DNA of 64,000 nucleotides from Actinomycetes bacterium. GTDB taxonomy: Bacteria; Actinomycetota; Actinomycetes; JACCUZ01. Each line of letters begins with the position of its first letter. The first letter of the stretch is position 1. The position numbers and the translations under genes are program-made. Below are positions 17,472 through 54,252 of this stretch, in pieces. A model generated the notes under the pieces. The model did no database searches. It saw nothing but the letters and a program-made list of their open reading frames with translations, and was not told where the DNA came from. The DNA is taken from the NCBI GenBank assembly GCA_038246575.1, contig JBBRVU010000002.1:4613-68612 (forward strand), written 5' to 3'.

Positions 17472-17622
17472 GTCGGTGGCTCCCTCGGCGCGAGCGGTGT
17501 CCCGAACCGCTTCCGATTGCTTGTGAAGCACTTCCGACCCTGACGATGAACGGACAACCGCCAACGGGACTCGCGGCTCTGCCGCGGCTCTGAGGTCGGG
17601 GTCGATACGCTCCGCTCGCGAC

Positions 17623-17641
17623 GGTCAAGACGGTCTTGACC
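17623..17641. promoter_or_regulatory. perfect palindrome GGTCAAGAC-G-GTCTTGACC
   Basis: 9-bp arms with a 1-nt centre, in the noncoding left end of the island, 70 nt upstream of the 17711 gene. Confidence 0.4.
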
Positions 17642-17677
17642 GGGATACGGTCGCGAACGTATGGTCTCTACACACAA

Positions 17678-17698
17678 GACGCTTCAGACTGAAGCGTC
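17678..17698. promoter_or_regulatory. perfect palindrome GACGCTTCAG-A-CTGAAGCGTC abutting the RBS
   Basis: 10-bp arms ending immediately before GGAGAGG and GTG 17711. Could be an operator or a translation-masking RNA hairpin. Confidence 0.45.
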
Positions 17699-17710
17699 GG
17701 AGAGGAACAC

Positions 17711-18202: not shown

Positions 18203-18230
18203 CCGCTCGTCACTGCACAGCGACACCGAA

Positions 18231-18458: not shown

Positions 18459-18488
18459 TGCTCTCACGGCAACGATTGGTGGTGGGAC

Positions 18489-20036: not shown

Positions 20037-20067
20037 TCTCTATCTACGACGACCAGATCGGACGCTC

Positions 20068-24927: not shown

Positions 24928-24961
24928 AAGGGGGGTCGAGCGCCCAGCCGAATCGCGGCCG

Positions 24962-25009
24962 ATGCTGGACAACATGTTGGACCACTGGTTGGACAACCTG
25001 GTTGGTCAC
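24962..25009. repeat. 4 x 12-bp tandem array (atgctggacaac / atgttggaccac / tggttggacaac / ctggttggtcac)
   Basis: Read directly from the sequence. Two units contain TGGACAAC, a one-off variant of the island-wide CGGACAAC motif. Iteron/operator-like. Confidence 0.6.
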
Positions 25010-25223
25010 CATGCGGGTCATGTCATCTCTCCACTCAGGAATGGTTGGCGCCAGTTGTCAACAGATGCCAGCAAGGGTCTTGACTGCCCGATTCGATCAA
25101 GCCAGGCTGCGACGCAAGCGATATCGAGGGACCACCTCGAGGTTGCAGGTTGATCTTTCGGATGACTCCGCCCAGGCGGGAGAAGCTCGCGCGAGGGGAA
25201 CCGCCGCTCGCGAGGCGACGACG

Positions 25224-25796
25224 GTGACGGCGGTGCTGGCCGTGGGAATCGCAAGACAGACGGGTCTCGGCGTCCGATCGCTGACTGTCGTCGCCGCGGG
25301 AGTCCTGGTCGCCTGTTCGAGTAGTCCAGGCGCCGCGCCTGGGCCGACCAGCGCGCCGGCGGTCACGCTAGAGGGCGACGCCAGCCCGACATTGACAGCG
25401 ACCGTGAAAGATGAAGTGCTGTCGGACTACCGGGCATTCTGGGAAGCATTGCCAAAGGCTTCACGGCTCAAGGAGGGTGCCCGCAAACGGCTGCTCGCCG
25501 AACATCTCGTAGATCCCGCGCTGTCCCGGGTGGCCCAATCCCTCGCCTCGCAAGCGGCCTTCAACAAGCGGCTATACGGAGAAAACCGTCCACGTCCGCG
25601 TCTTGTTGATTTGGGGCCGTCCACGGCGACAATCAAGGACTGTCAGGACTCGAGCCAGGCCGGAATAGTCGACCTAAAGAGCGACGAGAGACTCACTGTC
25701 GGCGTCGCGCGAAACCCGGTCAAGGCAACGGTCAAGCTCGATGGTGACGGCCGCTGGAAGATCGCGACGATCACTTATCCAAGCGGTGACTGTTGA
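25224..25796 (+). CDS. putative lipoprotein
   Basis: Hydrophobic leader ending in the lipobox-like LVAC-SSSPG. Start is approximate (GTG 25224); the upstream part of ORF 24846..25796 is unlikely to be coding. Confidence 0.5.
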   Translation: MTAVLAVGIARQTGLGVRSLTVVAAGVLVACSSSPGAAPGPTSAPAVTLEGDASPTLTATVKDEVLSDYRAFWEALPKASRLKEGARKRLLAEHLVDPALSRVAQSLASQAAFNKRLYGENRPRPRLVDLGPSTATIKDCQDSSQAGIVDLKSDERLTVGVARNPVKATVKLDGDGRWKIATITYPSGDC

Positions 25797-26677
25797 ACGG
25801 CCTCGCCCCCCTAACGGTCATCGTCGTTTTGGCTCTGACCTATCTCGCCCCAGGGCGGGCGGGCGCTGGGGAGTCGGCTCCGATCGTCGTTGTCGGCGAC
25901 AACAACGGCGGTATCTCGACTGGGGTTTTCGACCCCGGGACCGATCCCACGCGAGGCGGAACTTCGGCCAACGAATCGTCCGCCGTGACGTGCAGTTACC
26001 GCCCGGATACGAGCAACCACTCGTCAGGACCTCCGCAGTGGGAGCGTGATGCGCCTCACCTTCGCGAGGAGGGGGCGTGGTTCTTCCGCCAGTGCAGCGA
26101 CGGCTCCTTCACAGTCGTGTGGATCCCGGCCGATGCTGGCTCGCCGAACGCCCCCCGGGTCTCACCGGGCGAGCTGGCGGTGCAGGCGGCGAACTATCTG
26201 CCGCTGCCCGCGCCTGCGGTGCATCACAACCCGGACCAGACCGAGGGGCGTCCGCAGACGGTGGTCGGTGTGCCAACGTGGCTGTGGGTCGCTGAGGGTT
26301 CCTTCTCGACTTTGCGGCAGACCACGTCGGCGGGTGGGGTGTCCGCGACTGTGACGGCCAGGCCGGTCTCAACCATCTGGACAACCGGTAGTGAGGACGC
26401 CGCGGGCCTGGTGTGCTCGGGGCCGGGCGTGCCCTACGACCCGTCCCGGGAGCCGGAGGGCCAGTCGACGTACTGCTCCACGATGTACTCGCGCTCCAGC
26501 GCGGCACAGCCGCAGACGGGTCCGCTACCCAATGACCGGTACTTCACCGGCACTGCCACCACCGTGTGGCGGGTCAGCTGGACCGGTAGCGGCGGTACCC
26601 AAGGGACCCTTCCCGACCTGCGTCGGACCAGCACATTCCGGCTCGCGGTCGCCGAGATTCAGGCGGTGAACCAATGA
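25793..26677 (+). CDS. secreted protein, unknown function
   Basis: TTG start overlaps the upstream stop. Has an N-terminal signal-like helix (LAPLTVIVVLALTYLAPGRAGA). No family recognised. Confidence 0.6.
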   Translation: MNGLAPLTVIVVLALTYLAPGRAGAGESAPIVVVGDNNGGISTGVFDPGTDPTRGGTSANESSAVTCSYRPDTSNHSSGPPQWERDAPHLREEGAWFFRQCSDGSFTVVWIPADAGSPNAPRVSPGELAVQAANYLPLPAPAVHHNPDQTEGRPQTVVGVPTWLWVAEGSFSTLRQTTSAGGVSATVTARPVSTIWTTGSEDAAGLVCSGPGVPYDPSREPEGQSTYCSTMYSRSSAAQPQTGPLPNDRYFTGTATTVWRVSWTGSGGTQGTLPDLRRTSTFRLAVAEIQAVNQ

Positions 26678-27399
26678 CCACAGACCTCAGTCGGCCTGTG
26701 CCACCCAACGGCTCGACACCTACGACCACGCATGAGGTGCCGCGGGGCGCACCGGCCACGCCGCTGGCAGCGCCGCGGCTGGTCGCGCCGGGCCGCCGCC
26801 GCCCCGCTGTGTGGGGGCTGGGTTTGGCGCTGGTGATGGCCGGCGGTGCGGTGGCGGCCGCGACCACGATGGCCGCCGGTGACCGCGCCGCGGTGCTGAG
26901 CGTGGTCCGTCCGGTCGACGCGGGCACCGTCATCGAGGCGCGCGACCTCGGTGAGGCCCGGGTCGCGCCCGACCCGATGCTGGACCCCATCCCAGCCGAC
27001 CAGCGTGACCGGGTGCTTGGGCAGGTCGCGGGGGTCGATCTGCGCCCGGGCACGTTGCTCACACCGAGCCAGCTCGAGGAGCGGGCGATCCCGGGCGCGG
27101 ACCAGGCCCTGGTCGGAGTCGCGCTGGACCCGGGCCGGCTACCCGCGCGGCGCTTGCAGCGCGGCGATCGGGTCCTTGCCGTCGTCACCGCCCAGGAGCC
27201 GCCGATCGGTGTCGAGTCCGGGGTGCCCGCGACCGAGCCGCCGGGCACCCGGGTGGCGGAGGTGGTGTCCACCGGACGCGTCACGCCGGACGGGCGGGCG
27301 GTAGTCGACCTCCTTGTCCCCGAAGGTGAGGCGGCGGGGTTGGCGGCGGACGCGGCCGCAGCCCGGATCAGTCTCGTCCTGCTGCCCCGGGCCGGGTGA
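26674..27399 (+). CDS. SAF-domain protein (CpaB/RcpC-like Flp pilus assembly protein)
   Basis: One TM helix followed by a SAF-like segment: VVRPVDAGTVIEARDL...VAGVDLRPGTLLTPSQL. ATGA overlap with the upstream gene. Confidence 0.7.
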   Translation: MTTDLSRPVPPNGSTPTTTHEVPRGAPATPLAAPRLVAPGRRRPAVWGLGLALVMAGGAVAAATTMAAGDRAAVLSVVRPVDAGTVIEARDLGEARVAPDPMLDPIPADQRDRVLGQVAGVDLRPGTLLTPSQLEERAIPGADQALVGVALDPGRLPARRLQRGDRVLAVVTAQEPPIGVESGVPATEPPGTRVAEVVSTGRVTPDGRAVVDLLVPEGEAAGLAADAAAARISLVLLPRAG

Positions 27400-27406
27400 G
27401 GGTCCC

Positions 27407-31636: not shown

Positions 31637-31663
31637 ACCCAACAAGAACAAGGAGCACCTGAC

Positions 31664-31912
31664 ATGCCCGCACCCACCCGCTGGCCCTCGCTGCGGCCCG
31701 CCCTTCCCAGCTCTCTGATCATCGCCATGCTGGTTGTGCTGGTCGCGCTCACCACCCTGCCGGCGCGGCTGCGTGCCGCCCGGACAGAGCGCGCCGACGC
31801 CGGCTCGGTGACCCTGGAGCAGGTCGCCATCGCCGCCGGTCTGCTCGCGGTCGCGGTCGCTGCCGTCGCCGTGATCGGCAAGGCCGTCACCAACTACACC
31901 GACCTGCTCTAG
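31664..31912 (+). CDS. Flp/DUF4244-like pilin candidate
   Basis: Small protein with ERADAG-SVTLEQVAIAAGLLAVAVAAVAVIG. This resembles the G/xxxxE(Y) processing site plus hydrophobic helix of actinobacterial Flp pilins such as the M. tuberculosis Rv3656c type. Confidence 0.55.
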   Translation: MPAPTRWPSLRPALPSSLIIAMLVVLVALTTLPARLRAARTERADAGSVTLEQVAIAAGLLAVAVAAVAVIGKAVTNYTDLL

Positions 31913-31914
31913 CC

Positions 31915-32840: not shown

Positions 32841-32845
32841 CCGGG

Positions 32846-39044: not shown

Positions 39045-39096
39045 CCGCTCGCCTCTCCAGTCCCCCCGGCTTGAGCCGCACACGTTGCTGCCGGAG

Positions 39097-39184
39097 GTTG
39101 TCCGCACCGTTGTCCGCGCCCTCCGCGCAGGTTGTCCGGCGAGGACTTGGGGCCGGGTCGGGTCCGGCCAATGTTGCGGACAAC
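39097..39184. promoter_or_regulatory. cluster of four GTTGTCCG/CGGACAAC boxes in a divergent promoter region
   Basis: GTTGTCCG at 39097, 39109 and 39131 (direct) and CGGACAAC at 39177 (inverted), between the hydrolase gene (-) and the T4SS operon (+). Confidence 0.6.
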
Positions 39185-39238
39185 GTCCGCGCCGACCCTG
39201 GGTGCTGACAACAGCGGCCTTGACTTGAAGGAGCCCCG

Positions 39239-39571
39239 ATGATCTCCACAGTTGCCCTTGACGTCCTCACGTCCGGCGCGGTGGGCCACCTCCTCGCGGA
39301 CGTCAGCACCCGCCCGGACCCCAACGGGCTGCCGGGCGGTGCGGCGCTGCAGAAGCTGTTGAACGGTCTGGTGTTCCTCGGCCTGCTGGGCTGTGTCGCC
39401 GCCGTGGTCGCCGGCGGGGCGACCTGGTTTGCCGGGGCGCAGGCCGGGAACTTCACGGCCTCGGTCGGCGGGCGCCGCGCGGTGCTCGCCGGGATGGTCG
39501 GCGCGCTGGTGATCGGCGCGGCGGCCGCGATCGTCAACTTCTTCTTCGACGCCGGCTCGGCCGTCCGATGA
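39239..39571 (+). CDS. small membrane protein (VirB2/TrbC-analogue candidate, DUF6112-like)
   Basis: 110 aa with two to three hydrophobic helices. First gene of the T4SS operon, with a GGAG RBS. Family assignment is from memory only. Confidence 0.5.
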   Translation: MISTVALDVLTSGAVGHLLADVSTRPDPNGLPGGAALQKLLNGLVFLGLLGCVAAVVAGGATWFAGAQAGNFTASVGGRRAVLAGMVGALVIGAAAAIVNFFFDAGSAVR

Positions 39572-40794
39572 TCCCCGAGTTGGCCGATGTCGCTGCGCTC
39601 CCGGCGGACCTCGCCTTGCAGTTGCAGACCGGGCTCTGTGACGGGCCAGGTTCGGTGGTGGTGGCGGCCTGCAACCTTCCCCTGCCCCTGCCCGGCGGGG
39701 TTGGGGCGGTGACCGACAGCATCACCGGTGGCCTCGGTGACGCCGCAATGCGGGGGCTGACCGGGTTCGTCGTGGACGGGGCGGTGTGGCTGATCGGGCA
39801 GGTCGCCACCGCGGTGACCGCGTCCACGCAGGTGCGGGTCCAGGCGGGCTGGTTCGCCGGGCACTACCAGCAAATGACCGGCATCGCCGCCGTGTTCACC
39901 GCCGCCTTCCTGCTGCTCACCGCGGCGTCGACGATGCTGCACCGCGACCCGGCGCGACTGGGCCGCGCCGTCGGCATGGTCGCCGCCGCCGGCCTGGGAA
40001 CCGGCGCGGTGCTGGTGATCACCGACCTGCTGCTCGCCGTGTCCGACCAGCTCTCCGCGACGGTCGCGCGCGGCATGGCCGGTGACCTGCGCACAGCGCT
40101 GACCGGCGCCGCCGACGGACTCGGATCGCTGATCCTGCCCACCGCGCCGGCAACCGGGGCGGGGGTGCCGCTGTTCGCGGTGCTACTCGCGGGCCTGCTG
40201 GCCGCCGCGGCGGCGGTGGTGATCTGGGTCGAGCTGCTGCTGCGCGAGGTCGCCCTCTACGCCGTCGTGCTGTTCTTCCCCCTCGCCCTGGCCGGGCTCG
40301 CGTGGGAACCGGCCCGGGCGTGGGCGCGCCGGCTCGCCGAGCTGCTCGGCGCGCTGATCTTCGCCAAGTTCGTCATCGTCGCCGTGCTCTCCCTCGCTGC
40401 CGGCGGCCTCGCCTCCGGCGGGGACCAGGACGCCGGTGGGTTCGGCGGTGTACTGGCCGGCGCGGCCCTGTTGGTGGTGGCCGCTTTCTCCCCGTTCCTG
40501 CTGCTGCGCCTCGTCGGGGTCATGGAGGTCGCTGCGGCCGCCACCATGCTCGAGGGCACCCGCGCGCGCGGCACCCGCCCGATCGTCACCGGCGCCCGGA
40601 CCGCCATGTATGCGGCGGCACGCCACCACGGCCCTTCCGCCTCTTCGGCGCGCGGCATGGGCGCGATCACGGTCGCCGGCGCCGGCGCGCCGTGGGCCGC
40701 CGCCGCAGCCGCTGCCCGACCACCCATCCCGCTGGGACCCGCCACCGCCGCGTCCGCGTCCCTGGCCGGGCACCGCTCGGCGAGAGGAGCCTGA
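39568..40794 (+). CDS. polytopic membrane protein (VirB6/TrbL-like channel candidate)
   Basis: ATGA overlap with the upstream gene. At least six hydrophobic helices and an Ala/Gly-rich tail. Confidence 0.55.
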   Translation: MIPELADVAALPADLALQLQTGLCDGPGSVVVAACNLPLPLPGGVGAVTDSITGGLGDAAMRGLTGFVVDGAVWLIGQVATAVTASTQVRVQAGWFAGHYQQMTGIAAVFTAAFLLLTAASTMLHRDPARLGRAVGMVAAAGLGTGAVLVITDLLLAVSDQLSATVARGMAGDLRTALTGAADGLGSLILPTAPATGAGVPLFAVLLAGLLAAAAAVVIWVELLLREVALYAVVLFFPLALAGLAWEPARAWARRLAELLGALIFAKFVIVAVLSLAAGGLASGGDQDAGGFGGVLAGAALLVVAAFSPFLLLRLVGVMEVAAAATMLEGTRARGTRPIVTGARTAMYAAARHHGPSASSARGMGAITVAGAGAPWAAAAAAARPPIPLGPATAASASLAGHRSARGA

Positions 40795-40796
40795 CT

Positions 40797-42362
40797 GTGA
40801 CCTCCACCGCCACCACCTCACCGATCGACGACACGATCCCGCCGGTACCCAGCTCCACCGGCAGCCGGGCGGGCTTCGTGTTCGGGCCGCGGGAGACCCG
40901 CGGGTTGCTGCTTGGGCTGCGCGGCCCGCAGCTGGCCGCGATCCTGGGCGGCCTCGCCGCGGTGGCCGCCGGACTCAACCGCGGGCCGCTCGGTGTCCTG
41001 CTCGGCCTGGGGGTCGCCGCGTTCGCGGTGGTCGCGGCATTCTGGCCGGTGGCCGGTCGCACCGTGTTGGAGTGGGCGCCGGTCGCCCTGGGCTACGCCG
41101 CGCAGCGCGCGATCGGCCAGGCCAGCTACCGGCACCCGCTCACACCGGCCCCGGACCTGCCCGGCCCGCTCACCGCCCTGACGATCCACGCCGTCCCGGT
41201 CCAGGGCCAGGCTGCGGGAACGGTGATCGGGGTCGTCGAGGATCGACGGCGCGGCACCCTGGGCGCGGTCGCCGCCGTCACCGGGGCGCAGGCACTGGCC
41301 CTGCTCGACCCCGCCGACGCCGACCGGCGGATCAGCGGGTGGGGCAGCGTGCTGGCCGGGTTGGCCCGGGACGGCTCGCCGGTCCGGGGGCTGCAGTGGG
41401 TGGCCCGCACCGTCCCCGACCCGGGCGGGGACCTGTCCCGGTTCTGGGCGCAGGCCAGCGCGTCGGGTCGGGCGGGGCTGCCGACGGCCGCAGCGTCCTA
41501 CCGGGCGCTCCTGGACACCCTGGGCGACACCGGGGGCGGCAGCGGGCTGTGGCGCCACGAGGTGTACGTCGCGGTGACGGTCGACGCCCGCAGCGGCCAG
41601 CGGCGGCGCGCCCGCGGCGGTAGCCATCGCGACCCGTATGGCGTGCTGCTCCGGGAAGTCGCCGCGCTGCAGGACCGCCTCGCCCAGTGCGAGCTCGAGG
41701 TGGCCGGCTGGCTGCCCCCGCCCGCCCTGGCCCGGGTGCTGCGCGAGGCCTACGAACCCGCCGTCACCCGAGCCCGCGACGCCCGCGAACCCGAGCAGTC
41801 CGAACAGTTCGAGCAGATCGAGTCCGCGGTGGATCCGGCCGGCTGGGGGCCGATGGCCACCACCAACACCTGGACCTGTTTCCGCTCCGAGGACGCCTGG
41901 CACGCCACCTACTGGATCTGCGAGTGGCCCCGCAGCCCCGTCGGTGGGGACTTCCTCACCCCACTGCTCGCCGCCCCCTGCGCGTCCGGCGTGCGGCGCA
42001 CCGTCAGCGTGCTCGCGGAGCCGGTCGACCCGCGCGCCGCCGCCCGGGCCACTGCGTCCGCCCGGACCGCGGAGGCCGCGAACCAGGCGCTGCGGGACCG
42101 GGTCGGGCAGCTCACCACCGAACGCACCCGCGCCGAGGCCGCCGACGTCGCCCGCCGCGAACGCGAACTGGTGCAAGGACACGGCGACTACCGCTTCCTC
42201 GGGCTGCTTACTGTCACAGCCCTCACCGCGCAGGCATTGGACGATGCGTGCGGGCAGGCCGAGCACGACGCGCACACCGCCGGGCTGGAGGTCCGCCGCC
42301 TCTACGGCGAGCAGGACCAGGCCTTCGCCGCCACTCTCCCCCTCGCCCGGGGCCTGCGATGA
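40797..42362 (+). CDS. SCO6880-family-like conjugation protein (VirB3/PrgI-analogue region plus cytoplasmic domain)
   Basis: FVFGPRETRGLLLGLRGPQLAAILGGLAAVAA, followed by two TM helices and a large soluble domain. Always precedes the VirB4-like ATPase in actinobacterial T4SS ICEs (from memory). Confidence 0.55.
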   Translation: MTSTATTSPIDDTIPPVPSSTGSRAGFVFGPRETRGLLLGLRGPQLAAILGGLAAVAAGLNRGPLGVLLGLGVAAFAVVAAFWPVAGRTVLEWAPVALGYAAQRAIGQASYRHPLTPAPDLPGPLTALTIHAVPVQGQAAGTVIGVVEDRRRGTLGAVAAVTGAQALALLDPADADRRISGWGSVLAGLARDGSPVRGLQWVARTVPDPGGDLSRFWAQASASGRAGLPTAAASYRALLDTLGDTGGGSGLWRHEVYVAVTVDARSGQRRRARGGSHRDPYGVLLREVAALQDRLAQCELEVAGWLPPPALARVLREAYEPAVTRARDAREPEQSEQFEQIESAVDPAGWGPMATTNTWTCFRSEDAWHATYWICEWPRSPVGGDFLTPLLAAPCASGVRRTVSVLAEPVDPRAAARATASARTAEAANQALRDRVGQLTTERTRAEAADVARRERELVQGHGDYRFLGLLTVTALTAQALDDACGQAEHDAHTAGLEVRRLYGEQDQAFAATLPLARGLR

Positions 42363-42637
42363 CCGGCGCCAGCGACCGCGCCGGCAGGTGGCCCGTGGGC
42401 GCGGCGTCGGAGGACGCGGCCACCGCCACCGGCCGCGACGCGGTGGACAACGAGACGACGCAGCCCTGGGCGCGAGGAACCGGCTGCCCGGAGCTGGCGC
42501 TGCTGTTGGACCGGTTGACGGCCGAGCGCTACCGGGCCGTCCCGCCCCCACCGGGAACCTGCCCCGCCGTTCATCGGCCCGCGACTCTCGGCCCGGACCC
42601 TGCCACCGGTGGGGCGGGGGGCGGCGGCGATGCGTGA
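42359..42637 (+). CDS. small hypothetical protein (92 aa)
   Basis: ATGA overlap with the upstream stop, and its own stop overlaps the VirB4-like start by 8 nt. GC3 is very high across the ORF. No family recognised. Confidence 0.45.
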   Translation: MTGASDRAGRWPVGAASEDAATATGRDAVDNETTQPWARGTGCPELALLLDRLTAERYRAVPPPPGTCPAVHRPATLGPDPATGGAGGGGDA

Positions 42638-44045
42638 GCGCGGCCGGGTGCTGCGCCCGGCGCGGGTCCCGCGGCACCGGGGGACCACCGCGTCGCTGCA
42701 GGCCGCCTACCCGTTCCTCACCGCACCCGGCCTGGCCGCGCGCCTCGGTGGGCGTGGGCTGTACGTGGGGCGGGACTGGCACGGCGGCGCGTTCAGCTTC
42801 GACCCGTTCGAGCTCTACGCCGCCGGGCTGCTCACCAACCCCAACCTGCTCGTCGTCGGGCAGGTCGGGTCCGGGAAGTCGGCGCTGGTCAAGACGCTGC
42901 TGTGGCGGGCGCTGGCGTTCGGCTACACCGCGTGGGTCGCCGATCCCAAGGGCGAGTACGGCGACCTCGCCGCCGCGGCCGGCGCGCCCGTGGTCCGCCT
43001 CGGCCCCGGCGAGCCCACCCGGCTCAACCCGCTGGACACCGACGAACCGCACCCGGCCGGCGCCGACACCGGCGACTCGGGTGACGGCGGCGACGGCGGC
43101 ACGGGTCAGGGGGATGGGCGGGTGCGTCTGGTGGCGGCGCTCGCGGCGACCGCGCTGGGCCGGGTACTGGCCCCGGTGGAGCACGCCGCCACCGCCCTCG
43201 CCCTGCACGCAGTCATCCGCGGCGCCGGCGGGGCGGCGCCGGTGCTCCCGGACCTGGTCGAGGCGCTGCTCGCCCCGTCCAAGGACGCGGCCGGCGCGGT
43301 CCGGATGACCGTCCCGCGCTTCGCCGACGCCACCCGCGACCTGGCGCTGGTGATGCGCCGGATGTGCGCCGGGGACCTGGCCGGCATGTTCGACGCACCC
43401 ACCCGCCTCCCCGGGGACAGCCGCGGCGGCGACCGGTCGGTGCTCGACCCTGGTGCGCGGCTGGTGGTGCTGGACCTGTCCGCGGTGTACCGGGGCAACC
43501 GGGACGCGCTGCCGCTGGTGATGTGCACCGCCACCGCCTGGCTACAAGCCACCATCGCCCGCGCCGCCCAGGCCGGCGGTGACGGGACGCGCCGCTTCGT
43601 GGTGGTCGACGAGGCGTGGGCGCTGCTCAACCAGGAGCCCACCGCCCGCTGGCTGCAGGCCTCCTACAAGCTGGCCCGTGCCCACGGCGTCGCCAACATC
43701 GCCGTCCTGCACCGGTTCTCCGACCTCGCCGCCGCCGGCGCGGCCGGCTCCGAGACCGCCGCGCTCGCCCGCGGGCTGCTCGCCGACGTCGGCACCCGCG
43801 TCGTCTACAACCAGCCCGCCTCCGAACTCACCGAGGCCCGAAGCGCGCTGGGCCTGACCGGCCCCGAGACCGAGCTGCTTCCGCACCTGCCGCGCGGTCA
43901 CGGGCTGTGGAAGCTCGGCACCCGGTCCTGGCTGGTCGAACACCACCGCTCGGAGACGGAGCGGGCGATGACCGACACCGACCACGCCATGCGCGGCACC
44001 ACCGGACCCGCAGCGACCGCGCCGACCGCAGGAGAACAGCGGTGA
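42630..44045 (+). CDS. VirB4/TraE-like conjugative ATPase
   Basis: Walker A VVGQVGSGKSA and Walker B RRFVVVDEAW. N-terminal RHRGTTASLQAAYPFL is typical of actinobacterial ICE ATP/GTP-binding proteins. Confidence 0.8.
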   Translation: MRERGRVLRPARVPRHRGTTASLQAAYPFLTAPGLAARLGGRGLYVGRDWHGGAFSFDPFELYAAGLLTNPNLLVVGQVGSGKSALVKTLLWRALAFGYTAWVADPKGEYGDLAAAAGAPVVRLGPGEPTRLNPLDTDEPHPAGADTGDSGDGGDGGTGQGDGRVRLVAALAATALGRVLAPVEHAATALALHAVIRGAGGAAPVLPDLVEALLAPSKDAAGAVRMTVPRFADATRDLALVMRRMCAGDLAGMFDAPTRLPGDSRGGDRSVLDPGARLVVLDLSAVYRGNRDALPLVMCTATAWLQATIARAAQAGGDGTRRFVVVDEAWALLNQEPTARWLQASYKLARAHGVANIAVLHRFSDLAAAGAAGSETAALARGLLADVGTRVVYNQPASELTEARSALGLTGPETELLPHLPRGHGLWKLGTRSWLVEHHRSETERAMTDTDHAMRGTTGPAATAPTAGEQR

Positions 44046-44623
44046 TCCCCGACCCCGGCGCGCCCGACCTGCCCGTGCCCGGCGACCTCGACGCGGAACG
44101 GGCGGTGCTCGGGGCGATCCTGCTCAACCCGGCCGTCGCCGCCCAGCTCCTGCCGCTGCTCAGACCCGCCCACTTCTACCGGCCCTGGCACGGCCAGGTC
44201 CTCGAAGCCGCCCAGCACCTGCACACCGCCGGGGGACCGGTGGACCCGATCGCCGTGCACGCCGAGCTGCGCCGCCGCGGCCTGCACGGCGAACCAGGGC
44301 GCAGCAGCGGCGTCCTGCTCCACGACCTGCTCGCCGCCGTCCCGGTCACCACCTCGGGCGGGCACTACGCCCGGATCGTGCTCGAGCACGCCGCCCGTCG
44401 GCGCCTGGCCCAGGCCGGGGTCAAGCTCGTCCAGCTCGCCGCGAACCCGCACGGCGGGACCGGAGACCTCGACGAGGTGATGCGCGACGTGGTGCAGGAG
44501 ATCGCGTGCGTCCGGGCCGCCGTCGACACCTACCACCACACCCCACCGCCGCTGGCATCCCGCGCACGGTCCGCGCGCGGGGACGAAGGGCGTTCGCTGC
44601 GCTCCGTCGGACCCGACCGATGA
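44042..44623 (+). CDS. DnaB-helicase N-terminal-domain-only protein
   Basis: DLDAERAVLGAILLNPAVAAQLLPLLRPAHFYRPWHGQVLEAAQHL...DPIAVHAEL...GGHYARIVLEHAARRRL matches the DnaB N-terminal domain. No RecA-like ATPase part follows. GTGA overlap upstream and ATGA overlap downstream. Confidence 0.75.
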   Translation: MIPDPGAPDLPVPGDLDAERAVLGAILLNPAVAAQLLPLLRPAHFYRPWHGQVLEAAQHLHTAGGPVDPIAVHAELRRRGLHGEPGRSSGVLLHDLLAAVPVTTSGGHYARIVLEHAARRRLAQAGVKLVQLAANPHGGTGDLDEVMRDVVQEIACVRAAVDTYHHTPPPLASRARSARGDEGRSLRSVGPDR

Positions 44624-47109
44624 GCACCCGTCCCCGGCCGCGGCCCTCCCGGGTCGGCAGCGACCTGGACGACCTGCTCACCGGTTGGCTCCTCGGTGCC
44701 GTCGCGCTGCTCGGCGCCGCCGGCCTGGGCCTCTGGGCGGCCGGGCAGCTCGCCGCCCTGCTCGTCCACGGCGACTGGCCCGACGTGCCGCCGGCCGCGG
44801 CCTTCGGCATCGCGACGGGGCTGCCCGCCCACCTCACCGACCCCGCGCAGGCGTGGCCGGTCACCGCCCGCGGCCAGGTCCCCGGACCGGTGGTGCTGTA
44901 CGGGGTGCTGCTCGTACTGATGGTCGCCTTCGTCACCTCCGGCCTGTTTGCAGTCTCCGCATGGCGCCACCACCACGCCGGAGACGCCCGTCTCGAACGG
45001 GACCGGTCACCGCTCTGGGCCCGGCCCACCCAGATTCGGGCGCTGCTCGTGCGCCACCCCGAACCGGGACGGGTCGTCCTGGGCCGGCTCGCCCGCCGCA
45101 GCCGTTGGCTGGTCGCCGCCGAAGCCCGCCGCTCCGTGCTGGTCGTGGCGCCCACCCAGGCCGGGAAGACCAGCCGCATCGTGGTGCCCACCGTGCTGCG
45201 CTGGACCGGGCCGATGCTGGTCACCTCGGTCAAGGCCGACGTGCTGCGGCTGACCCTCGCCGAACGCCGGCGCCGGGGCCCGGCGTACGTGTTCGACCCC
45301 ACCGGCGCCACCACAAGTGGCGGCGCCGGGCACGGCATCAACCCCGGTGACGGCGAGGGCATCGACCCCGGCAACAGCGACGGCATCGACGTGGCGATCC
45401 GGGCCGCAGCGGTCAAGTGGTCCCCGCTGCTGGCGTGCACCAGCTATCCCGACGCCGAGCGCACCGCCGCGTGGCTGATCGAGGCCGGCGGGGATCCGCG
45501 CGGGGAGAACGCCACCTTCTGGGAGTCCCTGGCTGCGAAGCTCCTGGCACCTTTGCTCTACGCCGCCGCCGGGACCGGCCGGTCGCTGCGCCACCTCGCT
45601 GCCTGGGTCGACCGGCGCGAGACCACCGAGATCACCGAAGCCCTCAGCTCCCTCGGCGACCTTGATGCTCTCGACGCGTGGGCCGCCAGCTGCGCGCGCG
45701 AGGAACGCCAGCGGGAATCCGTCTACGCCACCACCGAGGTGATCCTGCGCGCCTTCGCCTCGCCGTCGGCGCGCGCCGCCACCGACATCACCGACGATGA
45801 CCGCACCGCCGGCCGGGTCCTCGACGTCGGGCGTCTCCTCACGGAGCACGCCACCCTGTACCTGGTGGCGCCGGCGCACGAGCAGGGCCGGCTCCGGCCA
45901 CTGTTCGAGTCCCTGGTGCAGGCCGTGCTGCGGGCCGCACAGGACACCTACGCCCGTACCGGTCGCCCGCTGGACCCGGCGCTGATGGTGATGCTGGACG
46001 AGGCCGCGAACATCGCGCCGCTGCGCCAGCTCGCGACCTACGCCGCCACCGGCGCCGGGCAGGGCATCCAGATCTGCTCCGTGTGGCAGGACCTCGCCCA
46101 GGTCGAGGCCCTCTACGGGCGCCGCGCCGCGACCGTGATCAACGGGCACACCGCGCGGGTCTTCCTCGCCGGCTCCGCCGACCTCACCACCCTCGACGCG
46201 ACCTCCCGCATGATCGGGGACCACCCCACCGATCGCCGGTCCCGCTCGACTGGTCCCGACGGCGGACGCAGCGTCTCCGAGCACACCGCCGACACCCGGC
46301 TCGCGCCGGTGGAGTACCTGCGCCAGCTCCCACCGGACACGGCCGTCGTCCTCTACGGCCGGGCGCCGGTCATCCGGCTCACCACCACCCCCTGGTACGC
46401 CGACCCTGCTCTGCGCCGCCTGGTCGACCCGATCGCGGCGGCCGAGTCCGACGGAACAGCCAGCACCTCGACTCGCTCGCTGCGGCGGCGGCACGTCAGG
46501 CGATCCGAGGGTGCGACTCGTCGTCCCCAGGGCGACGGGTATCCACAGATCCACAATCAGCCAACCGCAGCCGTAACGGCCGCGTCAGGCTCGTCACCGG
46601 AGAGCCCAGCAGTAGCGCGCGAGCAGACCAGCGAACCAGCCCTGCCCGCCACCGAGGAATGGAGCACCGTCGTGAACCACGTCGCCACATCTGAGCTCAC
46701 CAGACGCCTCGCCGCAGCGGAGTCACCGTTAGACGTGGTGGCGTTGGCCTGGCAGGCCGCTGACCACGGCGAGACCGTCGCGCTGGCTCTGTCGCGCACC
46801 GGCTCCACCGACGACATCCCGGCCTACCTGACCGCCGCCGATGCCTTCGCCAGCCTCCGCACCGACCTTGACGACCACGTCCACGGCGCACAAGCGACCC
46901 CTGTACCCGCGCTCGACAACTCCCAGCAGTCACCGGATGAGCTGGCGATGGCCGAGACCGCCCTTGCGGAGCTCGCCCGGACCCTCATCGTTGCCCTCAG
47001 CGACACCGCTCGAGCCTGCGGTGATCCTGACCTGGCGCGCGCCTGCTCCCAAGGCGCCCTCTCCGCCGCCGACGCGGCCGAGGCCACCACCCGCACGAGC
47101 ACCCCGTGA
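44620..47109 (+). CDS. type IV coupling protein (VirD4/TraG/TraD family)
   Basis: Two N-terminal TM helices, Walker A VVAPTQAGKTS, Walker B MVMLDEAANIAPL, and QGIQICSVWQDLAQ. Long acidic/Ala-rich C-terminal tail. Confidence 0.85.
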   Translation: MSTRPRPRPSRVGSDLDDLLTGWLLGAVALLGAAGLGLWAAGQLAALLVHGDWPDVPPAAAFGIATGLPAHLTDPAQAWPVTARGQVPGPVVLYGVLLVLMVAFVTSGLFAVSAWRHHHAGDARLERDRSPLWARPTQIRALLVRHPEPGRVVLGRLARRSRWLVAAEARRSVLVVAPTQAGKTSRIVVPTVLRWTGPMLVTSVKADVLRLTLAERRRRGPAYVFDPTGATTSGGAGHGINPGDGEGIDPGNSDGIDVAIRAAAVKWSPLLACTSYPDAERTAAWLIEAGGDPRGENATFWESLAAKLLAPLLYAAAGTGRSLRHLAAWVDRRETTEITEALSSLGDLDALDAWAASCAREERQRESVYATTEVILRAFASPSARAATDITDDDRTAGRVLDVGRLLTEHATLYLVAPAHEQGRLRPLFESLVQAVLRAAQDTYARTGRPLDPALMVMLDEAANIAPLRQLATYAATGAGQGIQICSVWQDLAQVEALYGRRAATVINGHTARVFLAGSADLTTLDATSRMIGDHPTDRRSRSTGPDGGRSVSEHTADTRLAPVEYLRQLPPDTAVVLYGRAPVIRLTTTPWYADPALRRLVDPIAAAESDGTASTSTRSLRRRHVRRSEGATRRPQGDGYPQIHNQPTAAVTAASGSSPESPAVAREQTSEPALPATEEWSTVVNHVATSELTRRLAAAESPLDVVALAWQAADHGETVALALSRTGSTDDIPAYLTAADAFASLRTDLDDHVHGAQATPVPALDNSQQSPDELAMAETALAELARTLIVALSDTARACGDPDLARACSQGALSAADAAEATTRTSTP

Positions 47110-48614
47110 CCACCTTCGGCGAGCTCACCACCCTCGCCGCACGGCACCTCGACGCCGCAAACCGCAGCGACACCGCCAGGCTCACCGACGCGGAATCGGT
47201 CGCCGCCCTGGCGGCCCTGTCGAAGTGTCTGAGTTCCTGCCAGCTGCTCTGGCGAACCGTCGACCGGCCCGACCGCCGTTTCTGTGACCCCGACCCCGCC
47301 TGGCAACGCGCCGGAGGGCGACTCGACCGGGGACTGACCGATGCGATCCGCCACCTGCACCGCGCCACACCCACCGCTGCGCGCGATCCGCAGACGGCCA
47401 CAGCGGCTCGCCTGCATGCGGCGTCGGTCGCCATCGGAGCCAGCCATGACCTGCTCGCGACGCACAGCGACACCCTGTCCACCGGGCGGCTGGACCGGAC
47501 CGGCTTCGCCGCTGTCATCGACAGCCCGGCCGGGCGCCGCGCGCTGGCTAAAGTCATCGTTGCTCACCTCCGGAGACTGACGGCAGTCGCCGAGCTGGTG
47601 GGCGGCAACTCGCAAGTCCAGCGGCCCACCCGTGAGGCGGCTCTGCGGGCCAGTGACGTCCTGCACGAGGCGCAGCGCGCAATCCGCACCGCTGGGGTCC
47701 TGGTCCGACCCGAGCGTGAGCTCCTGCCCGCGGTACCGCTGCTGTCCCCACTGCGGCTGTCACCGGTGCGGAATGGGGAGCCATCGGAGGTGTTGCTGCG
47801 CGAGGCGATCCGGGGTGCCGAACGGCTCCATCGCGTGGCCCGCGAGGAGGTCCAGACCGGGCACCTCGCCCGATACACCCCCGGGTCGATGGCCACCGTC
47901 GCGGTGGCCATGTCCACCGCGCAGTTGGCTACCGCGCAGGCGTTCCGGCAGCTCCGAACACGCGCCACGAACCTCGTTGACGAACCGGCCGGTACCCGGT
48001 TTGACGCTCACTTGCAGGAAGCGGCCGATACGGCCGAGCAAGCCGGTCACGCCTGGGCCGAGGTCCGCATCAGATGGCAAGGCATTCGCGCCGCGAGGGA
48101 AGACGGGCCAGCCGACGCGATCCGCCGCGAAGCCACCGACCTCACCACTCGCATCGGCAGGCTCGTCCACACCGACCCGGCATGGCTGCCGCGACTCGAC
48201 GCGAACAAGGACCTGCGGCCCGGCGCCGAGTTGGCGCCCGATGCGACCGCGTTCTGGAACCTCCTCGGCGGCCTTAGGCAGCTCAGCGCACTGGCCGCCG
48301 ACATCGCCGTAGATCACGTCGACCTCACCCACGCTCTGCAAGCACGCGATCTTCTCCTCGTCAGAACATCCACCCTCCCTGCCGAGTACGACATTGCCCG
48401 TCCGTGGGCCAGCGCCCCCAGCCGCGTAGTGCAGAAACTCGCGTCCGTCCAGCACCACGCCACCGCGACCACCCGCCTGTCGTGGACGACGGCCGTGGCC
48501 CTCACGGAGCTGGCGCCCCGTGAGCACCGCGACCTCGCCCGTGTCACGCTCGAGGGACGACGCCTTGCGCCCACCGCCGATATGCGCGCCGTCGAGAGCG
48601 GCCGTTACCGCTGA
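47106..48614 (+). CDS. hypothetical protein (502 aa), helical, no family recognised
   Basis: GTGA overlap with the coupling-protein stop and high GC3. Last gene of the T4SS operon. No HUH or relaxase histidine triad noticed. Confidence 0.6.
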   Translation: MTTFGELTTLAARHLDAANRSDTARLTDAESVAALAALSKCLSSCQLLWRTVDRPDRRFCDPDPAWQRAGGRLDRGLTDAIRHLHRATPTAARDPQTATAARLHAASVAIGASHDLLATHSDTLSTGRLDRTGFAAVIDSPAGRRALAKVIVAHLRRLTAVAELVGGNSQVQRPTREAALRASDVLHEAQRAIRTAGVLVRPERELLPAVPLLSPLRLSPVRNGEPSEVLLREAIRGAERLHRVAREEVQTGHLARYTPGSMATVAVAMSTAQLATAQAFRQLRTRATNLVDEPAGTRFDAHLQEAADTAEQAGHAWAEVRIRWQGIRAAREDGPADAIRREATDLTTRIGRLVHTDPAWLPRLDANKDLRPGAELAPDATAFWNLLGGLRQLSALAADIAVDHVDLTHALQARDLLLVRTSTLPAEYDIARPWASAPSRVVQKLASVQHHATATTRLSWTTAVALTELAPREHRDLARVTLEGRRLAPTADMRAVESGRYR

Positions 48615-48755
48615 AATTCGCAGACGGCGCCGCCCAAACTCCGCGGGCGGTCCGGGTGGCCGGCGGGGGAACTTTCGATCTTCCGATTTTCAGTGCCGGT
48701 CGAGGGGTCCGGAGGCGTCCATCGACGTAGATCAACAGGGCCCTGACCTGCGGTT

Positions 48756-48820
48756 TTGCTAAACGATCTTCCGGAGCCGTTCGCCGGAATCCGACGCTGT
48801 TGTTAGCAAAGTGTTAGCAA
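48756..48820. repeat. TTAGCAA boxes: two direct copies 11 bp apart (TGTTAGCAA at 48801 and 48812) plus an inverted copy (TTGCTAA at 48756)
   Basis: Read directly in an AT-richer noncoding stretch just after the T4SS operon. Confidence 0.5.
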
Positions 48821-49462
48821 GATAGCGGGATCGAGAGAATCTCGTGGTTACTGCCAGTGACACAGAGACGCGTATCGGACGACCGCTTGCGGTGTCCGCT
48901 TAGGTGAGGTTGTTCACATCCTGCTCCTCGACCGGATGGACGAGCCGGACGTCGATCGACATTCGTTGTCCGGGCTGGCGCAGAGGCGTCGAGTTTGGTC
49001 GACAGTCCGCGCTGCATGACTTTGGGTCGCCAACCCCGTGCCGCGGCAAGCCCGTCTTCGCCGTCGTGCGGCCCTTTCGGGATTGGGCGAGCTCGTCGAG
49101 CTCGCACGAAGCACGCAGGCGGCTTCGTCCAAGCAGCCGATGGCGGATGTCGCCGCGACGATAGGGACGCCGTCCTGGGGACGTCCGACTTCTCACGAAT
49201 GTCGCGAAGCCCGATCGGCGAATCGTGCGCGAGCAGGACTGACGGCGACCTCGCGACGCACGCCCAGTCTGTCGCCCCGCCAGGGGCTCGTGGACGAGCT
49301 TCTGCGGTTAGCGGAACCTCCCTTTCCAAGGTGCAAGCCTCAACGTGCCCAGGTCGTCGGCCTATTCGCCGCTCCACCAGTGCCACTTGCCGTAGCCGTC
49401 CGGCCGACGCTCCGGTGGCGGTATGAGTGCTCGGCTCAGGTCGGGCCGCTCCTGGACGCGCG

Positions 49463-54244: not shown

Positions 54245-54252
54245 GGGATACG

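Follow-up and report, generated by a model that had tools for sequence, protein, structure and literature searches.

Phased direct-repeat arrays at the predicted pilus, hydrolase and T4SS promoters of a putative actinobacterial conjugative element as candidate sites for a membrane-tethered SARP-type activator

The closest described counterparts of the repeats analysed here are found at promoters activated by SARPs, among them the afs box of AfsR and the heptamers of ActII-ORF4, DnrI and PimR. At such promoters the repeats are spaced by 11 or 22 bp, the 3′ repeat is placed 8 bp away from the −10 element, and 8 bp are contacted by each protomer (PMC10936776); the sites have also been described as heptamers with 4-15-nt spacers, often in three repeats (PMC10972967). 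We found no paper that connects SARPs with conjugation or pili, nor one on the regulation of actinobacterial T4SS-type conjugative elements (SCO6880/SCO6881/DUF6112 relatives). The window studied here, a 64-kb stretch of an Actinomycetes contig, carries a putative element of this kind, and its direct-repeat arrays are most likely sites for a SARP-type activator, which would point to a previously undescribed activation route for actinobacterial conjugation genes. Based on comparative sequence analysis and structure modelling, we propose that the element-encoded protein g39 is this activator and binds these arrays to drive the Tad, hydrolase and T4SS promoters, a reading to which we assign a probability of roughly 0.65.

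A preliminary description of the window had drawn attention to an 8-mer, CGGACAAC (reverse complement GTTGTCCG), in 11 exact copies, all within the island. Our recount over both strands agrees: the plus-strand copies begin at 17551, 28240, 28261, 28282, 28315, 36087 and 39177 and the minus-strand copies at 39097, 39109, 39131 and 48965, with none outside 17.5-49 kb. The accompanying list of 7-mer matches in the non-island part (4821, 10759 and 16938) proved incomplete, as copies at 8779 and 15634 had been missed. The 8-mer had also been considered rare by chance. Dinucleotide shuffles of the window contain 3.05 copies on average and 7 at most; under a third-order Markov model its total count is absent from the top 25 over-represented 8-mers of the window; the related TGGACAAC occurs 9 times window-wide, non-island DNA included. 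Three copies (17551, 36087 and 48965) have no phased partner, a number equal to the chance expectation, and the one at 36087 is missing in the closest relative. The non-random component is the phased clustering, with three phased arrays of at least three units in the window against 0.05 expected per 64 kb, rather than the unremarkable total. What repeats is therefore not a free-standing 8-mer but a 7-mer core, arranged as direct repeats with a 12-bp phase.

This core, GGACAAC, recurs in direct orientation in every array (units NGGACAAC), spaced mostly by 12 bp and also by 21-22 bp, and the spacers are not conserved (Table 1). The TGGACAAC variants previously noted in a 12-bp array at 24962-25009 (array A) were confirmed, as were the four exact copies between the divergent hydrolase gene and T4SS operon (arrays C-left and C-right, together 39097-39184). 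The two C-right units align with a CGGACAAC-CGGACAAC pair in the related element L053, and the first gene of the T4SS operon starts at ATG 39239, with GAAGGAG as its ribosome-binding site. For the cluster before cpaF (array B), the reported copies and their 21/21/33 spacing stand, but the cluster lies within coding sequence, where the TadZ-like gene (27407-28372) nears its 3′ end, with the cpaF GTG (28369) 47 bp further on, and its first three units represent one perfect 21-bp x2.9 tandem duplication. There the motif reads as the rare codons GGA CAA (Gly-Gln). Neither an integrase, a relaxase nor attachment repeats were found in the window, and the island boundaries show neither convincing attachment-site direct repeats nor a tRNA. 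A structured ncRNA in the DUF6112-proximal intergenic region was rejected: no Rfam family reaches the gathering score within the window, and folding is not significant (z-scores −0.92 and −1.34).

Table 1. Arrays, putative −10 elements and neighbouring genes, in window coordinates
Feature	Position	Strand	Description
Array A	24966..24997	+	upstream of Tad pilus operon; 3 direct-repeat units, 12-bp period: TGGACAAC 24966-24973, TGGACCAC 24978-24985, TGGACAAC 24990-24997
P_tad −10-like hexamer CACCAT	25007..25012	+	putative; starts 9 nt past last array A unit
Tad/Flp pilus operon	25392..33289	+	presumed array target; g28 (lipoprotein-like, start maybe as early as ~25043), g29, SAF/CpaB-like, TadZ-like, CpaF, two TadB/C-like T2SSF genes, small ORF, two TadE, TadG-like
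Array B	28240..28322	+	cluster 1 of the preliminary description; 5 units, spacing 21/21/21/12: CGGACAAC at 28240, 28261, 28282, 28315; TGGACTAC at 28303
g39	33286..36285	+	last Tad operon gene; 999 aa; candidate array binder
Lytic transglycosylase (SLT) gene	38103..39047	-	signal peptide; ATG 39047; presumed array C-left target
−10-like hexamer CAACGT	39082..39087	-	9 nt past last array C-left unit; putative SLT hydrolase promoter
Array C-left	39097..39138	-	toward lytic transglycosylase gene; 3 CGGACAAC units (39138-39131, 39116-39109, 39104-39097), spacing 22 and 12
Array C-right	39165..39184	+	toward T4SS operon; 2 units 12 bp apart: degenerate CGGCCAAT 39165-39172, CGGACAAC 39177-39184
−10-like hexamer GACCCT	39194..39199	+	9 nt past unit 39177-39184; putative DUF6112/T4SS promoter
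T4SS-type transfer operon	39239..47109	+	presumed array C-right target; DUF6112, SCO6881-family, SCO6880-family, VirB4-like ATPase, DnaB-N protein, VirD4/TraG coupling protein

Related elements hold the arrays at unchanged positions while the flanks diverge. When the divergent intergenic region was aligned with that of L053 (11.3 kb), 44 of 48 unit positions were identical, compared with 62 of 130 positions elsewhere (p = 2e-8), and L053 carries four of four exact CGGACAAC copies in this orthologous region. Equivalents of array A are located upstream of the Tad operon in L079 (CGGGCAAC x5), L080, L081 and L082; the three-unit layout of array C-left recurs in L053, L061, L063-L066, L069 and L082; and where the window has array C-right, relatives carry two to three units in plus orientation, spaced by 12 bp. 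Array B is kept at the DNA level in L077 (five units, 24/12/27/12) and L078 (three units, 12/12). We rejected a protein-level repeat as its explanation: the peptide tails of the TadZ-like proteins of the window, L077 and L078 diverge, having in common only the motif-encoded Gly-Gln, whereas at the DNA level both the units and the phasing persist. Family-wide, exact 7-mer pairs of the form G.C.AC number 32 at 12 bp and 0-13 at each other distance between 9 and 25 bp, so that 12 bp is the dominant spacing, with 21-24 bp as a second class. Distant Acidimicrobiia relatives (VirB4 identity 50-55%) are uninformative for the arrays, since upstream of DUF6112 their promoter is AT-rich and a hydrolase gene is missing.

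In more distant relatives that do carry arrays, the motif is altered in step at all arrays of one element (GGGCAAC, YGGCAAC or GGGCGAC). The CGGACAAC class comprises the window, L053/L077 and L078, the CGGGCAAC class L061 and L079, the YGGCAAC class L063-L069 and L080-L082, and the RGGGCGAC class L060; all four classes fill the equivalent three or four promoter positions. The DnaA-box consensus in high-GC Gram-positives is TTGTCCACA, one mismatch from GTTGTCCGC. A DnaA-box cluster was rejected all the same, since the relatives carry GTTGCCC, GTTGCCG or GTCGCCC; the motif varies per element and is therefore incompatible with one conserved host protein such as DnaA.

These comparisons also bear on whether the enrichment is a functionless artefact of composition, codon usage or one tandem duplication. 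Such an origin would suit the unexceptional Markov count, the window-wide abundance of TGGACAAC, the chance-level singletons, the single 21-bp duplication behind three of the copies and the fit of GGACAAC to the preferred codons GAC AAC. It is strongly disfavoured by the footprint and the excess of phased arrays reported above, by orthologous positions that keep the motif with concerted changes, by an invariant −10 offset, and by the use of rare codons in array B amid a non-conserved peptide.

The offset concerns a hexamer, NANNNT. Among 24 promoter-proximal arrays representing four promoter classes, 23 have it beginning exactly 9 nt past the 3′ unit; at any other offset it was found in 0-1 of the 24. 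The signature is missing at offset 9 in the cpaF-proximal arrays (0/3), array B included, and from the tadB/C arrays of L081 and L082. If the hexamer is the −10 element, as its position suggests, the layout is the known arrangement of SARP-dependent promoters. Both present 7-8 conserved bp head to tail with short non-conserved spacers, in two to three or more units set one or two helical turns apart and oriented with transcription; in both, the repeats would take the place of the −35 element and a short, constant distance separates the 3′ unit from a weak −10 (PMC10936776, PMC10972967), which is CACTGT in afsS and of CANNNT type in the arrays here. The match is not exact. Units here repeat every 12 bp, a value inside the 4-15-nt spacer range but off the classical 11 bp (one PimR site has 10 bp), and 9 nt instead of 8 separate the last unit from the −10-like hexamer. 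Moreover, the presumed targets belong to a mobile element (pilus, hydrolase and T4SS genes) and not to antibiotic clusters, related elements differ in their motif, and SARP binding is predicted.

Iterons, centromeres and the 8-bp repeats recognised by TraB on Streptomyces plasmids typically also consist of short phased direct repeats, and clt/TraB repeats and iterons resemble the arrays in being short (8 bp), specific to their element and located on conjugative elements of actinobacteria. The arrays could be imagined as sites of DNA processing instead of transcription signals: accessory sites of oriT, replication iterons, a centromere for partition, or clt-like repeats recognised by a translocase. 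The iteron-like 21-bp spacing of array B and its lack of a −10 hexamer would fit, as would the TTGC-type repeats that precede the ParA gene of a Microbacterium plasmid and the fact that neither a relaxase nor an oriT was identified in the window. We nevertheless regard this role as improbable. A clt site or iteron region is a single cis site for a translocase or Rep protein, whereas each element here has arrays at three or four loci, each oriented towards a gene and with NANNNT at exactly 9 nt, and arrays flank the divergent promoter on both sides. In addition, no rep, par or relaxase gene adjoins the arrays, and the transfer system is of the VirB4/VirD4 type, its coupling protein being VirD4-type rather than FtsK/TraB-type.

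The preferred reading, activation by a SARP-type protein, requires a binder, for which g39 is the candidate. Hydropathy analysis identified four hydrophobic segments (residues 24-51, 81-99, 121-145 and 356-380), with a LysM-like stretch around residue 200 (weak match, E = 0.0066). These are followed by some 350 aa without recognised fold (AF2 pLDDT below 60 for residues ~389-730) and by a predicted C-terminal SARP module of winged helix and BTAD domain (residues ~750-999, nt ~35533-36282). Pfam detects the BTAD domain (E = 4e-8); Trans_reg_C, the OmpR/PhoB-type DNA-binding domain, was not matched even at E <= 10, and g39 gave no sequence or profile match to SARPs in the PDB. The winged-helix assignment comes from one AF2 model of the C-terminus (pLDDT 93.4, pTM 0.90) and a Foldseek search, in which the only PDB matches at E <= 1e-3 were AfsR (8k60/8hvr) and EmbR (2fez/2ff4); the top six span 253-268 columns at TM 0.60-0.67, with E down to 2e-6. 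The model places an OmpR-type winged helix directly before the BTAD domain, as in SARPs, and the predicted fold resembles AfsR and EmbR across this whole module, although sequence identity is about 20-24% and the winged helix is invisible to Pfam. In known SARPs the module is N-terminal and the protein soluble, with NOD/TPR, LAL or FHA extensions, whereas in g39 it is predicted to lie at the C-terminus, behind four TM segments, the LysM-like loop and the ~350-aa region.

ToxR, TcpP and CadC combine a membrane-tethered OmpR-type domain with an extracytoplasmic sensor and act at direct repeats of virulence or pilus promoters. g39 would share this one-component design, an analogy of design only, with no homology shown: the three proteins have an N-terminal winged helix, a single TM segment and no BTAD domain, and the g39 profile matched TcpP weakly and non-significantly (E = 1.4).

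The preliminary description had interpreted the 8-mer as the operator of an element-encoded regulator coordinating the pilus, the T4SS and the end regions, and had named five candidates. The link to the pilus and the T4SS is supported by the footprint, the per-element covariation and the fixed −10 distance, while a role at the end regions is not, because the copies at 17551 and 48965 (as well as 36087) stand alone, show no phasing and are no more frequent than chance predicts. The "BTAD protein" of that list, g39, emerges as the best candidate from the AF2 model and its Foldseek similarity to AfsR/EmbR; the other four lie in regions not common to the relatives. The kinase, the sigma-like protein g26 and g27 (238 aa, 23559-24275; possibly the "GCRC-repeat protein") belong to a defence-like left arm and were rejected, as they have no counterpart beside the arrays in the array-keeping relatives L079-L082. 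The same applies to a helicase, which like the kinase resembles defence proteins, and to a small divergent ORF (24545-24901, minus strand). g28 and g29 were set aside as secreted- or lipoprotein-like. Rejection is weaker for the Xis-like HTH (50086-50286), which sits in the right arm among type III restriction-modification cargo and remained without a tblastn match in the 20 closest Acidimicrobiia loci. In contrast to the left-arm candidates, which lack counterparts in relatives, g39 is a conserved backbone gene, with homologs in L053, L060, L068, L069, L071 and L078-L083; L071 has no arrays at its DUF6112 gene. NCBI gives homologs of g39 the names AfsR/SARP.

Comparison of the recognition helices, TTTRNEVIARARKW in GGACAAC-type and VKTRTQAIVRARTW in GGGCAAC-type elements, revealed that position 7 is Val in three of three GGACAAC elements and Ala in six of six G4-CAAC elements. 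L060, with Val and GGGCGAC, breaks this simple rule. The covariation of helix and motif is suggestive and phylogenetically confounded.

It is also conceivable, if rather unlikely in our view, that the arrays are genuine operators of another protein, either another backbone protein whose DNA-binding domain goes unrecognised, such as the DnaB-N protein, or a host factor, and that g39 has a different role in the pilus system. Several backbone proteins have no recognised domain, the connection between g39 and the repeats is a predicted one, the period departs from the 11 bp of classical SARPs, and in L054 and L060 the DnaB-N gene has an array in front of it, as would suit autoregulation. On the other side, no other protein of the conserved backbone was found to have a predicted fold for sequence-specific DNA binding, and it is SARP promoters in particular that the repeat type and −10 geometry match (PMC10936776). 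With a host factor, the per-element change of motif would be left unexplained. The DnaB N-terminal domain is not known as a sequence-specific DNA binder.

In the mechanism that we favour, the arrays would be g39 sites that replace the −35 element at the Tad, cell-wall hydrolase and T4SS promoters, each unit being the 7-bp core, 12 bp or about two helical turns from the next. One g39 protomer would occupy each repeat beside RNA polymerase, as at AfsR-dependent promoters. A fourth array, at the end of the gene that precedes cpaF, is also conserved and would fall outside this promoter scheme. The SARP module of g39 would be cytoplasmic and tethered to the membrane by the four TM segments, with the LysM-like loop outside, so that envelope or contact signals perceived by the extracellular part could gate transfer. 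As g39 closes the Tad operon, the circuit would include positive autoregulation. A membrane-tethered g39 would also have to reach three loci, which counts against the proposal.

We put it at somewhat less than an even chance that g39 stands for a widespread, undescribed group of membrane-spanning, one-component LysM-SARP regulators that control actinobacterial T4SS-type conjugation, sensing the wall, the pilus or contact with the extracellular LysM-like part and, through the cytoplasmic SARP module on 12-bp phased arrays, switching on Tad, hydrolase and T4SS genes together. Operators would diverge in specificity from one element to the next, leaving each of several elements in one host with a regulon of its own. 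Should activation by g39 be confirmed, SARPs would extend from activators of antibiotic clusters to membrane-tethered switches of horizontal gene transfer. The analysis yields a testable regulon, consisting of operator units, three predicted promoters with predicted starts and a named candidate activator, and the natural variants of operator and recognition helix may be useful for studies of SARP specificity or as orthogonal promoters.

Homologs of g39 are encoded on 212 actinobacterial plasmids. Two distant ones were inspected, Microbacterium plasmid B and that of Streptomyces AM 4-1-1, and neither showed clear equivalent arrays. The Microbacterium plasmid has its dense, ambiguous TTGC-type repeats upstream of the ParA gene. 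In both plasmids the g39 homolog is located at or near the end of a Tad operon, where its NCBI label is only "LysM domain protein".

The 8-mer CGGACAAC/GTTGTCCG occurs exactly 11 times in the window in a both-strand search, which recovered every copy and coordinate of the preliminary description and found all of them within 17.5–49 kb, with none outside. The count exceeded that in dinucleotide shuffles (mean 3.05, maximum 7 copies) but was unexceptional under a third-order Markov model, in which the 8-mer fell outside the 25 most over-represented of the window. A single perfect 21-bp tandem duplication (×2.9) accounts for three copies, and the one-off variant TGGACAAC occurs nine times in the window, in island and non-island DNA alike. 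Three further copies (17551, 36087 and 48965) are isolated, lack a phased partner and match chance expectation in number. For these reasons the raw count is less striking, and the proposed tie of the motif to the end regions, represented by 17551 and 48965, falls away. The non-random feature is the arrangement of the copies. Arrays were built from units with at most one mismatch to the 7-mer core GGACAAC, spaced by one, two or three turns of the helix. Exactly three had at least three units (24967–24997, 28241–28322 and 39097–39137; array A, array B and the hydrolase-facing part of array C), versus 0.05 per 64 kb in simulated sequences with the same third-order statistics.

Genes were called on the basis of GC3 and annotated by Pfam, NCBIfam and PADLOC searches. 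Four regions were distinguished, namely a left flank, a left arm, a centre and a right arm. The centre runs from the Tad operon through small cargo genes and the lytic transglycosylase gene to the T4SS-type operon, and the final gene of the Tad operon is g39, a 999-aa "BTAD" gene.

Regions, repeat arrays and inferred promoter elements of the window
Feature	Position (nt)	Strand	Content or location
Left flank	1–16 kb		metabolic genes of chromosomal type
Left arm	17.7–24.3 kb		defence-like cargo: PD-T4-6-like kinase, helicase, sigma-like protein, g27
Array A	24966–24997		TGGACAAC, TGGACCAC, TGGACAAC; period 12; noncoding stretch before Tad operon
Tad/Flp pilus operon	~25.0–36.3 kb		g28, g29, SAF, TadZ-like, CpaF, two T2SSF, TadE/G, g39
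−10-like hexamer CACCAT	25007–25012		putative Tad promoter
Array B	28240–28322		3′ tail of TadZ-like gene
Small cargo genes			centre of window
Lytic transglycosylase gene	38103–39047	−	
Array C	39048–39238 (intergenic region)		hydrolase/DUF6112
−10-like hexamer CAACGT	39087–39082	−	putative hydrolase promoter
−10-like hexamer GACCCT	39194–39199		putative DUF6112/T4SS promoter
T4SS-type operon	39239–48614		DUF6112, SCO6881-family, SCO6880-family, VirB4-like, DnaB-N, VirD4, g49
Right arm	50–59 kb		HTH_17 gene, type III restriction-modification system with SNF2 helicase

Array C is truly intergenic, as had been described for the divergent hydrolase/T4SS region: three units face the hydrolase gene and, opposite them, the degenerate CGGCCAAT (39165) and CGGACAAC (39177) face DUF6112. 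The cluster reported just upstream of cpaF, array B, is also present, but it lies in the coding tail of the TadZ-like gene rather than between genes; the stop codon of this gene overlaps the GTG of cpaF. A fifth unit of array B, TGGACTAC at 28303, is placed 12 bp ahead of the last copy. In the window, array B has been remodelled by the 21-bp duplication, GC3 over it peaks in a frame without a start codon, and just upstream (28156–28202) the TadZ-like tail contains S/T-D-T repeats, the product of a 12-bp coding tandem repeat, CACCGACACGAG (×3.9). The near-palindrome CGGAGAACTTGTCCG (24486–24500), some 470 bp ahead of array A, comprises two inverted half-sites, each with one mismatch, and has no phased partners.

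Among species-representative genomes, only distant Acidimicrobiia relatives were recovered (VirB4 50–55% identity), in which the motif is not enriched and the promoter is different and AT-rich. A large protein collection and a metagenome scan yielded closer relatives (DUF6112 70–89%, CpaF 72–90% identity). In the closest, locus L053 (11.3 kb), all four exact copies fall in the hydrolase/DUF6112 intergenic region, which holds GTTGTCCG, GTTGTCCA and GTTGTCCG at spacings of 12 and 23 together with two CGGACAAC units at a spacing of 12. Pairwise alignment with the window revealed identity at 44 of 48 positions within units, compared with 62 of 130 in the remainder of the region (Fisher p = 2e-8). 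Array B has counterparts at the same place in L077 (1073–1154; five GGACAAC units, spacing 24/12/27/12) and L078 (2179–2209; three units, 12/12). The TadZ-like tails of these two loci and the window are unrelated except for Gly-Gln encoded by GGA CAA, rare codons in this GC-rich DNA, which points to selection on array B as DNA and not as peptide. Counterparts of array A were found in L079 (CGGGCAAC ×5, exactly 12 bp apart), L080, L081 and L082, and an extra array precedes the DnaB-N gene in L054 and L060. The latter (L054 10732–10763, GGGCAAC; L060 19045–19076, GGGCGAC) have three units of 12-bp period and a −10-like hexamer directly 5′ of the gene, unlike the window, where DnaB-N (44042–44623) sits inside the T4SS operon without an intergenic region. 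L081 (12024–12069, minus strand) and L082 (5744–5787, plus strand) have, between tadB and tadC, one further array of four units, with a palindromic end, CTGGCAAC/GTTGCCAG, and opposite orientations in the two elements. Upstream of DUF6112 in L070, L071 and L073, an inverted repeat (…AACCATTCCCC … GGTGAATGGTTGGGGGAA…) takes the place of direct-repeat arrays.

The unit sequence differs per element, changing at all of its arrays together while the architecture is kept. It is CGGACAAC in the window, L053/L077 and L078, CGGGCAAC in L061 and L079, [C/T]GGCAAC in L063–L069 and L080–L082, and RGGGCGAC in L060. Family-wide, exact G.C.AC 7-mer pairs number 32 at 12 bp versus 0–13 at other distances from 9 to 25 bp, with 24 bp in second place. 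Such concerted change of a short motif at several loci would be expected from co-evolution with a DNA-binding protein that the element encodes, and it rules out a conserved host factor (DnaA, for example) as the binder.

In sigma-70-type promoters, the key −10 positions are A at −11 and T at −7. We aligned 24 promoter-proximal arrays from the hydrolase side, the DUF6112 side, and upstream of the Tad operon and DnaB-N. In 23 of them, a hexamer [C/G]ANSST, whose second base is A and whose sixth is T, starts exactly 9 nt beyond the final unit; in the sole exception it starts at offset 10. At any other offset from 0 to 29 it was counted at most once. The nine intervening bases are unconserved, and each array points toward its downstream gene. 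Start sites placed from these hexamers would give leaders of ~30 nt, within which the hydrolase and DUF6112 genes have their visible ribosome-binding sites. No NANNNT hexamer lies 9 nt downstream of the cpaF-proximal arrays of the window, L077 and L078 (0/3), and the tadB/C arrays of L081 and L082 likewise have no −10-like hexamer. Phased, conserved and co-varying arrays stand at a set distance from the −10-like hexamers of the Tad, hydrolase and T4SS promoters, and we predict with high confidence that they are functional promoter operators. DNA-processing sites (oriT, iteron, centromere or clt) are quite improbable, being a poor match for several promoter-oriented arrays, each of them accompanied by a −10 hexamer. 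The chance of a composition or duplication artefact is negligible given the conserved footprint, the covariation and the promoter geometry. Structured RNA at the arrays found no support in an Rfam search of the window or in folding of the DUF6112-proximal intergenic region; ms1-like RNA candidates are discussed in one preprint for intergenic regions of Frankia that lie close to gene contexts of the DUF6112 type.

The arrays, their covariation, the −10 geometry and a predicted SARP fold support the earlier proposal of an element-encoded regulator joining pilus and T4SS promoters. Five regulators had been put forward, of which the BTAD protein, g39, fits best, whereas the kinase, the sigma-like protein, the Xis-HTH and g27, possibly the GCRC-repeat protein of that list, lie in cargo. 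Kinase, helicase, sigma-like protein, g27 and a small divergent ORF belong to the defence-like cargo and have no counterpart beside the arrays in L079–L082; the Xis-like HTH is part of the right-arm restriction-modification cargo and had no match in the Acidimicrobiia loci, the set searched. The binder is therefore expected among the backbone proteins. Two others, g28 and g29, were rejected as both look secreted. By contrast, g39 is kept in every relative extending to its position, and we estimate a probability of roughly 0.65 that it binds the arrays.

Residues ~755–850 of g39, immediately ahead of the Pfam BTAD domain, show by eye the winged-helix pattern of OmpR/SARP regulators, although sequence methods did not detect this winged helix. 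Among the homologs that span the full 270 aa of the fragment are Streptomyces proteins of ~250 aa called AfsR/SARP regulators by NCBI. AlphaFold2 confidently modelled the fragment with 24 homologs (pLDDT 93.4, pTM 0.90) as beta-beta-alpha1-beta-alpha2-alpha3-hairpin plus a helical domain. Its only PDB matches at E ≤ 1e-3 were AfsR in transcription-initiation complexes (8k60, 8hvr) and EmbR (2fez, 2ff4), aligned over 253–268 columns with TM 0.60–0.67; according to the model, the backbone encodes a protein with a predicted SARP fold. Upstream, g39 has a very basic N-terminus and four hydrophobic segments (24–51, 81–99, 121–145 and 356–380) kept in L053 and L060. A LysM-like stretch between segments 3 and 4 matched weakly (E = 0.0066), and plasmid homologs are annotated as "LysM peptidoglycan-binding domain-containing protein". 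With the predicted topology, the LysM-like loop would be extracellular and the SARP module cytoplasmic; modelling of residues ~390–740 gave no usable structure.

The g39 recognition helix differs by motif class: TTTRNEVIARARKW (window, L053) or STTRNQVITRARKW (L078) with GGACAAC, VKTRTQAIVRARTW with CGGGCAAC (L079), QASRNQAVARARRW with CTGGCAAC (L081), and KHTRNNVIYRARTW with GGGCGAC (L060); in L071, the helix is strongly divergent and arrays are absent. This covariation is compatible with g39 as the binder but phylogenetically confounded, the classes also being phylogenetic neighbours. Binding by a different protein we consider unlikely.

Direct repeats in SARP target promoters have a spacing of 11 or 22 bp, and 8 bp separate the 3′ repeat from the −10. 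Protomers in the AfsR complex each touch the initial 8 bp of an 11-bp repeat, a pair of adjacent protomers takes the place of the −35 contact, and afsS has the weak −10 CACTGT (PMC10936776). SARP sites are heptamers with 4–15-nt spacers, often in three repeats, and 10-bp variants are known (PMC10972967). The arrays described here agree with this in the type, number and orientation of their repeats, in a spacing of one or two turns and in a constant short distance from a weak CANNNT-type −10, but their period is 12 bp instead of 11 and the gap 9 nt instead of 8.

With g39 as the binder, one protomer would occupy each unit and recruit RNA polymerase to promoters without a −35, jointly activating pilus, wall hydrolase and T4SS. 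Because g39 ends the Tad operon, this would create positive feedback, and its membrane and LysM part may gate activity on an envelope or contact signal. SARP-type activation is already known as a principle. New, if true, would be the C-terminal membrane-tethered module, the 12-bp operator period, a regulon of mobile-element transfer genes and operator specificity diverging between elements. Full-text literature searches returned no description of the regulation of SCO6880/SCO6881/DUF6112-type gene sets and no report linking SARPs to conjugation or Tad pili.

Homologs of g39 occur on 212 actinobacterial plasmids (141 from Streptomyces, 27 from Rhodococcus, and others from Curtobacterium, Micrococcus, Cutibacterium and Microbacterium among further hosts), at or near the Tad operon end in both plasmids inspected. 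In plasmid B of Microbacterium sp. No. 7 (NZ_CP012699; L084, 9940–10210), the intergenic region ahead of a ParA gene and the Tad operon is dense with periodic TTGC-type repeats (CTCGTTGC ×3 at 11/24 bp, CTTGCAATCT ×3 at 12/11 bp and TGCATATGT ×2) and may serve in partition or be a distant form of the operator.

No integrase, relaxase, tRNA or attachment repeats were found in the window, so its "ICE" status is an assumption. An exact 18-bp direct repeat, CGTCACCAACTACACCGA, at 31885–31902 (a small ORF after tadC) and 59306–59323 (the end of the type III restriction gene), 27 kb apart, is probably due to chance. In the left arm, 18489–21930 holds a Ser/Thr kinase like the PD-T4-6 defence kinase (E = 4e-57) and, after it, a helicase similar to type IV restriction enzymes; related elements keep neither. 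Between the Tad and T4SS modules lie a fusion of a GmrSD_C/HNH-like nuclease domain with an Excalibur calcium-binding domain (36364–37227, minus strand) and a small Excalibur-like secreted protein (37493–37777), cargo also present in L078. The ~1.5 kb at 48615–50085, across which GC falls, contain no convincing gene beyond a weak NYN/Zc3h12a-like ribonuclease ORF (49510–49821, minus strand) and may be the decayed boundary where the transfer module meets the restriction-modification cargo. The right arm proper (50086–59348, GC ~0.61), with an HTH_17 Xis-like gene, SNF2/HKD helicase, DUF4391, type III methyltransferase and type III restriction enzyme, is defence cargo, with PADLOC E-values down to 0.
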